This document shows positions 1-14,496 of a stretch of DNA of 18,983 nt, in pieces. The notes under the pieces were generated by a model. It was not told where the DNA came from. It saw only the letters and a list, made by a program, of their open reading frames with translations, and ran no database searches. Made by a program: the position numbers and the translations under genes. Source of the stretch: Abditibacteriaceae bacterium (GTDB lineage Bacteria; Armatimonadota; Abditibacteriia; Abditibacteriales; Abditibacteriaceae); contig JANMKN010000202.1 of NCBI GenBank assembly GCA_031372065.1, forward strand, positions 1 through 18,983. Direction: 5' to 3'. Positions within the stretch are counted from its first letter, which is position 1, and each line of letters starts with the position of its first letter.

Positions 1-452
1 TGGGAATTCCTTCGTCAGGCCGATTGGTTTCGTCTACAGGTCTTTCACCTTCTATGGATCATCGTTCCAGAAAGATTCGACTACCGCTCGGTATGGTAAC
101 TGACTGACTGGTCTTGCACACAGTCCAAAGGCTCCCGCAACACCGATTACACATCGCTGCAAGGCTATGCCATGTAATCGGTTTAGGCTGTTCCCGTTTC
201 GCTCGCCACTACTCAGGGAATCGCATTCGCTTTCTTCTCCTCCGCTTACTTAGATGTTTCAGTTCAGCGGCTTACCTCTACCCTTACTATATATTCATAA
301 GGGAGTTCCATGACTGGTCATGGAGGGTTGCCCCATTCGGAAATCTCTGGATCAAAGCCTGCTTACGGCTCCCCAAAGCTTATCGTCGTTTGCTACGTCC
401 TTCATCGGCTCCAAGTGCCAAGGCATCCACCGTGCGCCCTTCCTAACTTGAC
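1..452 (-). rRNA. rrl: 23S rRNA, 5' portion (runs off window start)
   Basis: The reverse complement begins GTCAAGTTAGGAAGGGCGCACGGTGGATGCCTTGGCAC...GATGAAGGACGT...TTTCCGAATGGGGCAACCC...GAACTGAAACATCTAAGTA...TTCCCTGAGTAGTGGCGAGCGAAA. These are conserved 23S domain I motifs. The mature 5' end is approximate. Confidence 0.97.
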
Positions 453-524
453 TACGCAAAAGTCTGCAATCACTTGCAGGTTTCACAATCTACGTCTTTG
501 CGCTTCTTAAAGAACACACATTCA

Positions 525-10203: not shown

Positions 10204-10569
10204 TTAATATTCTTCGTTTTCGTCGTCTTCGCCGACATCGGGTTCGCCGTCGGAAAATGATTCCAATTCCTGACCGCGAAAAACGGTGACCAAGAAATCT
10301 TCGCGCGCGAATTGCGGCAAATGCGACGACACAATATCTTGATCTATCAAATCAATTAAATCGCCTTGCTGTTCGTTATCGAGGTCTTTTTCGATAATCA
10401 GCGTGGCGTTAATCAAATCGGGGCCAAAATGAATGTCCACTTGGCCCAAACGCACATCGTCCTGCCAGATAATGTAAACCTCAGACGAGTTGGTGCGCAC
10501 GACGCGCACCAAGCGCACGTCCAATGCAGCAGCGCGGTCACGAGCGCGCGGTTTGTCGCCTTGAGCCAT
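10204..10569 (-). CDS. Conserved hypothetical acidic protein
   Basis: 121-aa ORF with AGGA RBS, globular composition and acidic tail. TATAAT lies upstream (10623-10618). No family recognised. Confidence 0.75.
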   Translation of the reverse strand: MAQGDKPRARDRAAALDVRLVRVVRTNSSEVYIIWQDDVRLGQVDIHFGPDLINATLIIEKDLDNEQQGDLIDLIDQDIVSSHLPQFAREDFLVTVFRGQELESFSDGEPDVGEDDENEEY

Positions 10570-10706
10570 ATCAATTCCTATTTTCCCGTTTTCTTATTGC
10601 GCGTCCTTCATATGCCGATTATAACCAAATTTTCACGCCTCTCGCAATTATAAGGTGCCTTAGCCTTAACGTTTTAAGAACGGATAGGTTGGGTAAAATG
10701 CTTGAT

Positions 10707-12413
10707 GTGAACGGAATTGTCGACCCCGATGCCCCATCAGACGCCATAACACTGGCTTCCATAGACAAAATCGAAAAACGGCGCCTGCGCTGGTTGATGG
10801 TCATTTTTCTATTAATCGCCACCGTGCCCTATTTGTGGGCCGCTGCCATCACACCGCCCGGCTTCGTTTATAGCGGCTTGCTTTTCAGTCCCGACGACCA
10901 AAATGTGCATCTGATGTGGGCGCGCCAAGCCGCCGAAGGCCATTTTTTCGTGCAGGATTTGTTCACCACCGAGCATCTCACTACGGGAGAAAAACCGCTT
11001 TTTAACAACCTACTGACAACATTGATCGGCGCGCTTTCTTGGCCGCTTTTTTCGCTGATAATTTCTTACCATGCGCTTCGCATGGCGGCGGGCGCCCTAT
11101 GCTTATGGTGTTTTTATGGCTTGGCCGCGCAATTAACTTCCGACAAGCGAATCCGTTTTTTCGCCACCGTTTTGGCCGCCTTTTCATCGGGCGGCGGCTG
11201 GCTGCGCGATGTGTTGCCTTTTTGGGTCAATCGTGCTTGGATAGACCGGCCCGACAACACCAATTTTCCTATGATGCCGGAAGGGTTTGCCTCTCCGTCG
11301 CTTTTTATTTTTCCGCTCAACGCGGCATCGTTGGCGTTGTTAGCCCTGATTTATCACTGCGTTTTGCGCGCGCAAAACGGCGAAAAAAGCGCCTTAAAAA
11401 TTGGTTTTGTCGCTGCGTTTCTGCTTTCCAATATTCACACTTACGATGCGTTACCTTTAGGCGCGACTTTACTGCTTTGGGCACTTTTTTGCGGCTTAAA
11501 AGAGAAAAAATTGGCCTTCGCGCCGCTAATTATCGCTTCCGGCACACTGTTGCCGCTGATTTATCAGGTTTATGTGTTCAAAAACAGCAGCGAATTTAAA
11601 TTAAAGGCGATAACGGTCACCGCGCCGCCACCTTTGCCCGATGTTTTGCTGTCTTACACCCCGCTTTTGCTTTTGGCGCTCTATGGCGCGTGGACAATGC
11701 GACAAAATCAATCAGCACGTTTGCTCGTGCTTTGGGCACTTGTCACCCTTGTTTCGATTTACGCGCCGCTTTCCTTTGGCCGTAAAATGATCGAAGGCTT
11801 TCATTTGCCGCTTTGCTTTTTTGCCGCAGTAGCGGTTTTTGCATTGCTGAAAAACCGCACGCCCATTTTGCAACGCACTTTTGCCGCGTTTTGCGGCCTG
11901 CTATTGTGCCTTTCGTCGTTGCAATTTGTCGCTTGGTGCTTGGCTGATGCGCCCAAAAGCATCGTGCCCTATCGCGGCAATATGCCGCCGCTTTATTTAT
12001 CGGTTTTCGACGACCAAGTGCTATTTGATTTAAACAAGCAATATCAAAAAGACAAAGCCCTAAATAAGCCACCCAGTGCGGTATTGAGTTTGTATTTTGT
12101 CGGCAATTACATTCCGCAAAAAACCGGCTATCATGCCTTTTTAGGCCATTGGGCCGAAACTTTGGAATTCAAGCGCAAATCCGCCGAGGTTCACGCATTT
12201 TATCAAGGACGAATGCCGCGCGCCGAAGCATTGGAATGGCTGCATAAAAATCACATTCGCTATGTGTTTTTTGGTTTTTATGAGGCGCATTTATTTTCGT
12301 CAAACCAGCCGCTACACGATTTGTTGGGCAAGTCAATTATCTATCGTGGCCCAAACGAAATGGAATCTTCTAACAATCCCTCAGCTGTAGTGTTTGAAGT
12401 GCCCGACAAATAA
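10707..12413 (+). CDS. Polytopic membrane protein, probable GT-C fold glycosyltransferase-like
   Basis: About 11-13 hydrophobic segments, a DD motif after TM1 (SPDDQNVH), and a C-terminal periplasmic domain (…LHKNHIRYVFFG). Start is GTG 10707 or ATG 10698; the ORF-track start at 10524 overlaps the divergent gene. Confidence 0.65.
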   Translation: MNGIVDPDAPSDAITLASIDKIEKRRLRWLMVIFLLIATVPYLWAAAITPPGFVYSGLLFSPDDQNVHLMWARQAAEGHFFVQDLFTTEHLTTGEKPLFNNLLTTLIGALSWPLFSLIISYHALRMAAGALCLWCFYGLAAQLTSDKRIRFFATVLAAFSSGGGWLRDVLPFWVNRAWIDRPDNTNFPMMPEGFASPSLFIFPLNAASLALLALIYHCVLRAQNGEKSALKIGFVAAFLLSNIHTYDALPLGATLLLWALFCGLKEKKLAFAPLIIASGTLLPLIYQVYVFKNSSEFKLKAITVTAPPPLPDVLLSYTPLLLLALYGAWTMRQNQSARLLVLWALVTLVSIYAPLSFGRKMIEGFHLPLCFFAAVAVFALLKNRTPILQRTFAAFCGLLLCLSSLQFVAWCLADAPKSIVPYRGNMPPLYLSVFDDQVLFDLNKQYQKDKALNKPPSAVLSLYFVGNYIPQKTGYHAFLGHWAETLEFKRKSAEVHAFYQGRMPRAEALEWLHKNHIRYVFFGFYEAHLFSSNQPLHDLLGKSIIYRGPNEMESSNNPSAVVFEVPDK

Positions 12414-12454
12414 AAAAAGCCAGCGCGAAATCTGATTTCGCGCTGGCTTTTTTT
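12412..12454. terminator. Bidirectional intrinsic terminator between the membrane protein gene and the tRNA
   Basis: A7-GCCAGCGCGAAATC-T-GATTTCGCGCTGGC-T7, a perfect inverted repeat. Confidence 0.9.
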
Positions 12455-12504
12455 ATTTTTGCAGTAGGCCGAGAGGGATTTGAACCCCCAACCAAGGCAT
12501 TATG

Positions 12505-13088
12505 CTTACCACTACAACTTTCGTTGCCTTTCGTTTGTGGTCTGGACTATCTCTTCTCTTTACGAGTCTCCCGTTTAGTCTCTGCACCTTCCATTTCTGG
12601 CTTGGCTCAGGATTACCATATCTTTCGATTTAGGCTTCCCTGAATTTGAGAGATTCTATCTCAGAACTCAACATTATGAACCGTGTCATAATCTGCGATT
12701 CCAAGACAACCCATTCAAAGGACTATATGAACTGTTCTGTCTGCGGGACGCCTCTTAAAGGCAAACAAACCAAATACTGCTCGAAGCAATGTAAGTTTAA
12801 ATCTGACAACAACCGAAATCAGAATTATACAAAGCAACAAGAACGAGGCCGTAAAAGAAAACTCTCTTTGATAGAGGCGGCGGGTGGTAAGTGCTGCCTT
12901 TGTGGTTATTGTAAAAACCCCAATGCTTTATCCTTCCACCACTTAGACCCAGCCAAAAAGAATTTCAATTTGGACATCAGAAGCTGCTCTAATAAAACCG
13001 TTGACAGTTTGAAAAAAGAAGCCTCTCAATGTATTTTGGTGTGCTTAAATTGTCATGCAGAAATTCACAGCGATAATCCTCCCTCTTG
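12505..13088 (-). mobile_element. Group I self-splicing intron (IC3-like), 584 nt, in the tRNA anticodon loop
   Basis: Minus-strand core motifs: P AAATTCAGGGAA (12647-12636), Q AATCCTGAGC (12614-12605), R GTGCAGAGACTAAA (12587-12574), S AAGAGATAGTCC (12555-12544). P4 TTCAGG/CCTGAG, P7 GACTA/TAGTC, P3 TCTCTC/GGGAGA. The 5' exon ends in U and the intron ends in G (12505). Confidence 0.93.
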
Positions 13089-13089
13089 A
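12727..13089 (+). CDS. HNH endonuclease, putative intron-encoded homing endonuclease, antisense to the intron
   Basis: AAAGGA RBS before ATG 12727 (120 aa). N-terminal CSVCG…KYCSKQC zinc finger; C-terminal CCLCGY…LSFHHLDP…CILVCLNCHAEIH HNH/zinc module. Basic, and visibly more AT-rich than its neighbours. Confidence 0.88.
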   Translation: MNCSVCGTPLKGKQTKYCSKQCKFKSDNNRNQNYTKQQERGRKRKLSLIEAAGGKCCLCGYCKNPNALSFHHLDPAKKNFNLDIRSCSNKTVDSLKKEASQCILVCLNCHAEIHSDNPPS

Positions 13090-13134
13090 GTGCCCTGCTC
13101 TAACCCTTGAGCTATCGGCCCCTTAGCGCCAATT

Positions 13135-13143
13135 ATTCTACCA
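13135..13143 (-). promoter_or_regulatory. Extended -10 promoter for the tRNA
   Basis: The minus strand reads TGG TAGAAT (TGn + -10), 13 nt upstream of the tRNA 5' end. Confidence 0.6.
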
Positions 13144-13209: not shown

Positions 13210-14496
13210 TCACTCTTCGCCAAAAGCATCGGCGAGCGGCGTGCCTTGCGTGCGGCGGCGCAGTTTGCGCAAGGCACGGACTTCGAGTTGGCGCACGCGT
13301 TCGCGTGAGATTCTCATCTGCAAAGCCACATCTTCCGGTGTTTGCGCGCCATCATCGGCATAGTCACCGATGCCAAAACGCTTGCAAATTACCACGCGTT
13401 CGAGGCCGGACAGAGTTTCGAGAGCGTGCCCTAATTCCGTATGCAATTCGCTGCGCGAAACGCGAATTTCAGTTTCGTCGCCTTCGCCGCCCACAATGTC
13501 AGAAAGCTCCATGTGTTCGTCGTCCCCAACGGGCGAATCAAGCGAAAGCGGCTGCATAGAAGCGCGCATCGCTTCTTCCACGAGACTGAGCGGTATCCCA
13601 GAGGCTTCGGCGATTTCGATGCGCGAGGGAGAACGCCCCAAATTTTGCGATAATTCGCCTTGCACGCGGCGCACTTTCTGCATTACCGCATAAATATGTC
13701 CCGGCAAGCGCATCGAACGCGCTTGGTCGGACATGGCGCGATTAATGGACTGACGAATCCACCACGTCACATAAGTGCTAAGACGTTGCCCGCGCTCAGG
13801 GTCGAAGCGCTCGACGCCGCGCATCAGGCCAATCATGCCTTCCTGCACAATATCCAGCATTGGCAAAGTGGTGCGATCACCGTAGCGGCGCGCCACGAAA
13901 ACAACAAGGCGCCAGTTGGCCTCGACTAATTTTTGCTTCGCTGTTTCCTGCTCTTGTGGCGAACCATTTTTCACCAAAAGCGCCATGCGATGCTCTTCTT
14001 CAGGCGAAATGCGCTCAAATTGCGCCATGCGCTGCATATATTGCTTGTAGGCGTCCTCGACGGGGCGGCTATCGAAATCTTCGTCGTCCAACGTTGAAGG
14101 AGGCGCGGCGCCAGCGGCGAGAATTTCCTCCCAGTTTTCAAGGCGCGTCGCCATGATTTCTTCGAGTGAATTAATTGAGGCCAAGACATCATCCAAGTCA
14201 CTGTTGGCGTCATCTTTGTCAGCGCTCTTGTCAGCGACTTTTGCGATTTTTTTTGGTCGCGCGGTAGCTTTTGGCGCTTTGACTTTGGGGGTTGTGGCCG
14301 GACGCGGCTCGTCCACAACGGCAATGGCGCGTTCGTCCAGCGCCTCGAAAAGTTCTTCGGCGGCCAGTTCATCGAGCGCCAAATCGCCCAGCAGTTCGTT
14401 AATTTCTTCGTATGATAAGCGTCCGGCCCGCGCGCCGCGTTCGATAAGGTCAAGCACGCGCGGTTCTTCCAGAAGCGGTTTTAATGGTGAATTCAC
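13210..14496 (-). CDS. RpoD/SigA-family sigma-70 factor, divergent paralog
   Basis: Region 1.1-like GRLSYEEINELL; region 2 KLVEANWRLVV…DIVQEGMIGLMRGVERFD…STYVTWWIRQSINRAMSDQAR; region 3 PLSLDSPVG; region 4 ISRERVRQLEVRALRKLR. Confidence 0.9.
   Translation of the reverse strand: MNSPLKPLLEEPRVLDLIERGARAGRLSYEEINELLGDLALDELAAEELFEALDERAIAVVDEPRPATTPKVKAPKATARPKKIAKVADKSADKDDANSDLDDVLASINSLEEIMATRLENWEEILAAGAAPPSTLDDEDFDSRPVEDAYKQYMQRMAQFERISPEEEHRMALLVKNGSPQEQETAKQKLVEANWRLVVFVARRYGDRTTLPMLDIVQEGMIGLMRGVERFDPERGQRLSTYVTWWIRQSINRAMSDQARSMRLPGHIYAVMQKVRRVQGELSQNLGRSPSRIEIAEASGIPLSLVEEAMRASMQPLSLDSPVGDDEHMELSDIVGGEGDETEIRVSRSELHTELGHALETLSGLERVVICKRFGIGDYADDGAQTPEDVALQMRISRERVRQLEVRALRKLRRRTQGTPLADAFGEE

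Follow-up and report, generated by a model that had tools for sequence, protein, structure and literature searches.

A group I intron bearing an antisense HNH endonuclease gene splits a predicted tRNA-Ile2(CAU) gene in an Abditibacteriaceae genome

The group I intron in the tRNA-fMet gene of Synechocystis PCC 6803, which encodes the endonuclease I-Ssp6803I, resembles the locus reported here in that it is chromosomal, interrupts a CAU anticodon loop, measures about 600 nt and contains an endonuclease gene (PMC11622646, PMC1995217), and its class name, fMet.2Ug, implies the same U33/C34 position (Williams, 2020). The two differ in that I-Ssp6803I is a PD-(D/E)XK enzyme hosted by an initiator tRNA (PMC11622646, PMC1995217), whereas our locus combines an HNH enzyme with an Ile2 tRNA, and in that I-Ssp6803I belongs to one transcription unit with its exons (PMC11622646), whereas the gene described here is antisense. 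The Azoarcus BH72 tRNA-Ile(CAU) intron (class Ile2.5Ug) shares the isotype, the group I type and the anticodon-loop location (PMC13168695), but it is 205 nt long, lacks an ORF and follows the anticodon (a 3′ exon of 40 nt was used in the construct; PMC13168695), while ours precedes it. More broadly, Williams (2020; bioRxiv 10.1101/2020.01.27.920355) assigns classical tRNA introns to subgroup IC3, states that introns above ~400 bp may hold genes, and recognizes 21 tRNA/position classes of bacterial group I introns, a figure that makes the four classes given in our preliminary description outdated. Its main text makes no mention of an HNH gene, an antisense gene or an insertion in the P1 loop.

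The window, a stretch of 18,983 nt from the Abditibacteriaceae assembly GCA_031372065.1 (contig JANMKN010000202.1), contains two tRNA exons on the minus strand: a 33-nt 5′ exon (13121-13089; positions 1–33, last base U33) and a 40-nt 3′ exon (12504-12465; positions 34–73, first base C34, CCA not encoded). Joined, they form a full cloverleaf with the anticodon CAU. The 584 nt between them (12505-13088, minus strand) follow U33 and end in a G, the omega-G at 12505, and the Rfam model RF00028 matched 12739-12525 on the minus strand with 67.3 bits (E = 1.9e-15; gathering threshold 50), its sole match in the genome. The preliminary description had read the locus as a tRNA(CAU) split at U33/C34 by a 584-nt group I intron on the strength of the cloverleaf, the exon U and the terminal G, and had proposed the Rfam search; both the reading and the search held up. 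It had also expected standard annotation to miss the tRNA, and default ARAGORN indeed found none at the locus. With intron search, likewise proposed, ARAGORN did see a split gene but named the wrong isotype and cut site, calling it Leu(CAA), because the dinucleotide CA is present at both junctions. Splicing after this shared CA, or after the anticodon, was rejected, since a U at −1 and an omega-G coincide only at U33/C34.

The genome's ARAGORN list comprises 56 intact tRNA genes, including two CAU genes, one (contig C317) with the C1-A72 mismatch of an initiator and the other (contig C168) elongator-like. The split tRNA lacks the initiator mismatch and has acceptor pairs 2–4, pair 7-66 and A73 in common with the genome's tRNA-Ile(GAU), pairs 3 and 4 being G-C and C-G in both. 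We rejected an fMet or elongator Met identity in view of the separate initiator and elongator-like genes and the Ile-like acceptor stem; the anticodon first assigned to the gene stands, and its isotype is of the Ile2 type, not fMet. The genome also encodes TilS (177.6 bits). By the general identity rules of tRNA isotypes, the split gene is a tRNA-Ile2 of the lysidine type that would read AUA, with lysidine modification and isoleucine charging predicted. Split Ile2 genes of this kind would account for genomes seemingly without tRNA-Ile2, in which they are missed or are called Leu, Pro, Ser or Val by ARAGORN.

The HNH endonuclease gene (12727-13089, plus strand; 120 aa) runs antisense to the tRNA and the intron, and its TGA stop (13087-13089) straddles the 5′ splice site, being complementary to U33 and intron positions +1 and +2. 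An HNH ORF had initially been placed 5′ of the catalytic core; the location proved correct, within the P1 loop as described below, but the strand had been missed. A sense-strand ORF or maturase was rejected, as stops interrupt all three sense frames, the longest open stretch being 70 aa, and HNH starts at 12646 or 12676 are disfavoured, as the frame in the congeneric genome G002 is closed upstream of both. The protein has an N-terminal CxxC...CxxxC zinc motif, a long helix and a C-terminal CxxC-HH-CxxCHxxxH domain. Its best PHROG match was the HNH profile PHROG 2255 (E = 2.5e-19); the Pfam HNH profile gave 19.2 bits, under its cut-off of 21.4, and NCBIfam returned no family. Across 11 aligned homologues H71, H72, H110, H114, C56, C59, C106 and C109 were invariant; at the position of the canonical central Asn of HNH enzymes the family has a Lys and the window protein Gln101. 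The AlphaFold model, though confident (pLDDT 89), had a weak best structural match to the HNH nickase 4h9d (Z 4.3, rmsd 2.7, 61 aligned) and no Foldseek match at E ≤ 0.001, while EcoKMcrA was the best result in a sequence search of solved structures (E = 0.007). The wider family is large, with 3614 cluster representatives at E ≤ 1e-10; proteins P0011-P0025 carry a tandem HNH unit, with two to four copies per protein.

For the closest pair (window/G000 vs. G002, frame intact in both) we obtained a dN/dS of 0.18 at dS 0.42, and dN/dS lay below 0.5 in all 35 homologue pairs with 0.05 < dS < 1 (median 0.13), a set in which the pairs overlap. Such low values argue that the antisense frame encodes a protein under selection.

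To place the locus among its homologues, we considered the best 80 of 201 genome loci encoding an HNH relative. A group I core lay within 500 nt on the opposite strand in 75 of these 80, on the same strand in none, and was absent from five; in L090, counted among the 75, the core appears to belong to a neighbouring intron, and one of the five core-less loci (L082) is cut by a contig end, with a CAU 5′ exon directly after the HNH stop. The junction script resolved 67 of 82 loci, of which 65 were CAU genes split at U33/C34 and two were wrong calls; removal of one duplicate left 64 loci. The U33/C34 junction was thus common to 65/65 loci giving a CAU tRNA (82 examined). According to record titles, the hosts belong to the Acidobacteriota, Chloroflexota, Patescibacteria, Armatimonadota, Latescibacterota and other phyla. 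The HNH stop lies across the splice site in 17 of the 64 loci and 9–18 nt inside the intron in the rest. Two loci from Patescibacteria (L071, L080) have close HNH homologues with a leaderless −10 box and no tRNA or intron nearby, and these genes have possibly escaped from an intron. Three HNH genes (L077, L104, L111) contain in-frame TGA codons, some at an expected Gly, which is consistent with UGA recoding. In one Anaerolineae locus (L057, 512-1893) the intron reaches ~1.3 kb through a further insertion in the core. A scan of metagenome contigs with exact 18-nt matches was discarded, since all 11 matches were unrelated DNA.

The ribozyme core, P3–P9, was assigned to 12505-12653 (minus strand) from the RF00028 match and an alignment of homologous cores. 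All pairs of P3 (6), P4 (6) and P7 (5) were standard in 62/62 aligned cores, and two-sided, compensatory changes were found in each of the three helices, which argues for a conserved ribozyme fold. Between this intron and that of G002 there are 3 differences in the last 156 nt and 44 in the first 362 nt. Folding the core alone gave a minimum free energy z of −1.3, which is uninformative because the RNA is pseudoknotted. Cofolding placed the internal guide sequence at 12703-12713 (minus strand), where G12711 forms the wobble pair with U33 and the guide flanks pair with exon positions 26–32 and intron positions +1/+2. Since the guide lies 376 nt into the intron, the entire HNH gene falls within the P1 loop. 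Exon position 31 and the guide base facing it covary in 64/64 loci (A-U in 44, G-C in 20), though these represent few events because kin loci are not independent. The 5′ arm of a P1 extension (13067-13088, minus strand) is the reverse complement of the last HNH codons; the extension duplex, at −24.9 kcal/mol, beat 17/17 internal controls, and the loop is closed by pairing of 13082-13073 with 12726-12717, a segment complementary to the region where ribosomes would bind the HNH message. In 37 of the 64 loci, the window's among them, an end-to-end duplex of this kind was more stable than every internal control (mean −22.0 vs. −14.6 kcal/mol). Because the gene is antisense and inside the P1 loop, it cannot be translated from the pre-tRNA or the excised intron, as I-Ssp6803I can, and because it is on the opposite strand, it needs a transcript of its own.

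A CUAAG-type motif facing UAUG-like bases occurs in the first 30 nt of the intron in 55/64 P1 extensions and also in ORF-less introns; it provides the antisense TAG stop, and the window's lineage is without it. We take this motif to resemble the 11-nt tetraloop receptor. The RNA evidence consists of contigs from relatives of the organism and is without strand information. One contig from run X13 (depth 2.9) skips exactly 584 nt, as splicing would, but could reflect an intron-less allele; it is no proof of splicing because the DNA run X1 also has intron-less joins. In a contig from run X20 (depth 2), the 3′ end of the intron is joined back to the guide region (window 12498-12711, 214-nt loop), which could mean either that an ORF-less relative of 214 nt had formed a full-length circle or that a 4-nt repeat had produced a chimera.

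Upstream of the HNH gene, a Shine-Dalgarno-like AAAGGA (12717-12722, plus strand) ends 4 nt before the ATG, is kept in G002, and has its complement within the 3′ arm of the P1 extension; it would serve as the ribosome binding site. An uncertain candidate −10 box for the antisense transcript, CATAAT (12687-12692, plus strand), corresponds to TATAAT in G002; near relatives in the RNA runs differ at 12684 and 12689 within this region, and a promoter scan called nothing upstream of the ATG, CATAAT included. The same scan did not call the −10-like TAGAAT (13135-13140, minus strand) that is the likely tRNA promoter, where relatives have TAAAAT at a similar place. Between the tRNA and a convergent gene (10524-12413), there is a bidirectional, intrinsic-terminator-like hairpin (12411-12455), which should halt plus-strand read-through, so that the HNH gene would require an internal promoter. 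Among the 64 loci, 17 have a −10 box 5–8 nt before the antisense ATG, as in leaderless genes (vs. 33/669 control ATGs), a further 16 have an SD-like motif, and 31 have neither by the patterns used; the window locus is of the SD type, its promoter being only a candidate. Upstream of the tRNA lies a sigma-70 gene (13210-14496, minus strand; profile match and synteny). The 5′ end of a 23S rRNA gene was seen at the contig edge (window 1-453, minus strand).

We compared allele states among relatives, as the preliminary description had proposed, and intron-less, ORF-less and ORF-bearing alleles were all found within one family. In the same genus, the window's genome (G000) and G002 carry intron and HNH gene, while G001 and G003 have an intron-less gene at the same sigma-70-adjacent locus as G000. 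In the sister genus, where the sigma-70 neighbour is also present, G024 has a 639-nt intron with an HNH gene and G014 a 290-nt intron without an ORF; 275 of 290 aligned bases are identical and both ORF termini are retained, so that the G014 intron most simply arose by deletion. In the host family 4/27 genomes exceed the RF00028 cut-off, and in the phylum 19/351 genomes match the core, with 16 further loci comprising 14 ORF-less introns, one with an antisense HNH gene and one unresolved. An acidobacterial family matched in 67/151 genomes (the unpublished G370 being counted), 10 through the exon only; its 28 top intron loci included 10 with an antisense HNH gene, 18 without and none with a sense gene. 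Internal stops break the HNH ORFs of L038, L102 and L112. The HNH proteins of six same-phylum introns were rejected as one clade (AU p = 0.003), and together with the allele states this fits repeated gain, decay, loss and transfer between phyla. Independent HNH gains within the host family were not supported: three same-family HNH proteins were not rejected as a clade (AU p = 0.21). At one G002 locus (L004, contig C15) the tRNA exons are identical to the window's and the intron is 90% identical, but the flanking genes differ, and the anticodon stems of the syntenic intron-less genes in G001 and G003 differ from that of the window's tRNA; this points to co-conversion of the exons or to the entire tRNA gene having moved. 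G014 and G024 also have classical tRNA-Leu(UAA) introns (L228, L229), and three family genomes have weak RF00028 matches (L225-L227; 29–33 bits, ~290 nt) outside tRNA genes.

Free-standing relatives of the HNH gene were found in phages and in the host phylum. A tRNA gene was present within the locus in 74 of the best 79 viral loci, and the nearest tRNA lay within 150 nt in 65, being a CAU gene in 35 of those; CAU was the commonest tRNA overall (46 of 290), in what is a selected set. One of the 79, L132, has the HNH gene inside a tRNA intron, antisense. Of the first 15 viral loci listed, 13 have an adjoining CAU gene on the opposite strand, and 11 of these 13 are tail-to-tail or overlapping, with the polarity seen in the intron; the 35 CAU-adjacent phage HNH genes as a whole lie on the tRNA's strand in 20 cases (mostly more distant) and on the opposite strand in 15. 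In L118, L121 and L126 the HNH stop falls at the anticodon, which may be chance, as a stop occurs there in one of every three frames. Distant HNH relatives in the host phylum were free-standing beside tRNA genes in 24/24 loci. A tree of 91 of the 160 HNH proteins, built on few columns and rooted at the midpoint, grouped 45/45 intron-borne proteins in one branch with 12 free ones (SH-aLRT 92, branch not starred), left the free phage proteins outside that branch, and needed 8 changes of intron/free state, the direction of which the tree does not give. The association of free nucleases with tRNA genes makes it plausible that the HNH gene was captured from one of them into an intron. In five phage loci (L114, L117, L149, L154, L158), a free-standing HNH gene lies near tRNA genes, called as Leu, Asn and Phe, that contain group I introns of other kinds.

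Taken together, we consider it probable that the locus is a mobile tRNA(CAU) group I intron at U33/C34 with an antisense HNH homing endonuclease captured from a phage. The covariation-supported fold suggests that the pre-tRNA folds with the HNH sequence looped out and that the P1 extension brings U33 onto the guide, after which the ribozyme, by the usual group I mechanism, would excise itself and restore tRNA-Ile2. The HNH gene would be transcribed from the other strand, convergently with the tRNA, from its own promoter in the intron or just upstream in it; such a layout would keep ribosomes off the splicing substrate and probably hold expression low. As in other homing systems, the enzyme would nick or cut intron-less tRNA(CAU) genes near the anticodon, repair would copy the intron in, and the intron-bearing allele would be immune because its target is split. 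The HNH gene most likely derives from a free-standing phage HNH gene that was already antisense beside a tRNA(CAU) gene. The earlier proposal, that the intron is mobile, that its HNH gene serves homing and that the host tRNA is probably essential, fits the intact core, the three allele states, the selection on the HNH gene and a search that found no second intact copy.

These data could be read in other ways. The HNH gene could be kept for cutting intron-less tRNA(CAU) genes on incoming phage or mobile DNA, as defence or as a way of boarding phages, and not mainly for chromosomal homing. Three observations agree with this: purifying selection is strong although haploid hosts should seldom meet a homing partner, CAU is the commonest tRNA in the selected phage loci, and the phage intron of L132 contains an antisense HNH gene. 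However, introns without an ORF are more numerous than those with one (18 vs. 10 acidobacterial, 14 vs. 1 in the host's own phylum) and broken ORFs occur, so that a selfish cycle of gain and loss fits better than a host benefit, and we regard the phage-directed role as unlikely. Another reading, which we find distinctly improbable, has a functional intron in which the HNH gene is a recently silenced passenger, the signal of selection dating from past activity. The weak promoter signals in the window, the replacement of the family's Lys101 by Gln and the absence of the CUAAG-type motif from this lineage are what such silencing might leave; against it, the frame is intact in both G000 and G002 despite a dS of 0.42, all invariant His and Cys residues are retained, and so is the SD-like element.

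It is most improbable, finally, that the tRNA is a disrupted pseudogene whose function is covered by an intact Ile2 gene missing from the assembly. With 410 contigs, the assembly reaches 93.9% completeness, and its ARAGORN list is also without tRNA-Gly(GCC) and Pro(CGG), which leaves room for a gene that escaped assembly. Yet BLAST of either exon against this assembly found no second Ile2 copy; the cloverleaf is perfect, the exons are identical to those of G002, the core is nearly invariant, and the locus is that of the intact gene in G001 and G003. Moreover, of 2889 ORFs with at least 300 codons, 2172 use ATA, so a tRNA-Ile2 should be needed.

A further, tentative proposal, which we hold to be rather doubtful, is that this one family displays all birth stages of a mobile intron, that the enzyme still targets the tRNA(CAU) genes of incoming phages, and that phages are vehicles between phyla that may themselves be restricted. 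If so, the stages would be a free phage HNH gene facing a tRNA(CAU) gene tail-to-tail on the opposite strand, a U33 intron without an ORF, and the combination of the two, and the split host tRNA gene would be immune to the captured enzyme.

We found no description of an antisense HNH gene in a bacterial tRNA intron in the literature searched, mostly open-access papers, and the locus apparently represents a widespread, undescribed variant of mobile group I intron. In phages, I-TslI is reportedly an inverted HNH gene within an intron of a T7-like phage; two other phage intron genes considered as antisense precedents proved to be sense. SegB is reportedly a free-standing GIY-YIG nuclease among phage tRNA genes with an intergenic target. 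The I-DsqI system of nuclear rDNA group I introns has a homing gene antisense to the intron with a separate transcript, as proposed here, but is eukaryotic, of the His-Cys box type and hosted by rRNA (PMC9548176), whereas ours is bacterial, HNH and in a tRNA. In the collaborative homing model, an ORF-less intron is joined by a free nuclease that is already pre-adapted (PMC2988022). Free-standing nuclease genes among phage tRNA genes, such as SegB, parallel the phage HNH relatives of our gene. The papers considered on free-standing phage nucleases do not contain this HNH family, its preference for CAU tRNAs or its intron-borne form. With phage relatives beside the same tRNA type, the family offers a direct test of collaborative homing as an origin of mobile introns, and it also bears on how homing genes persist in haploid bacteria. 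Its antisense layout is fixed across several phyla, and to I-Ssp6803I, the one characterised bacterial tRNA-intron endonuclease in the literature found, the HNH family adds a second enzyme class.
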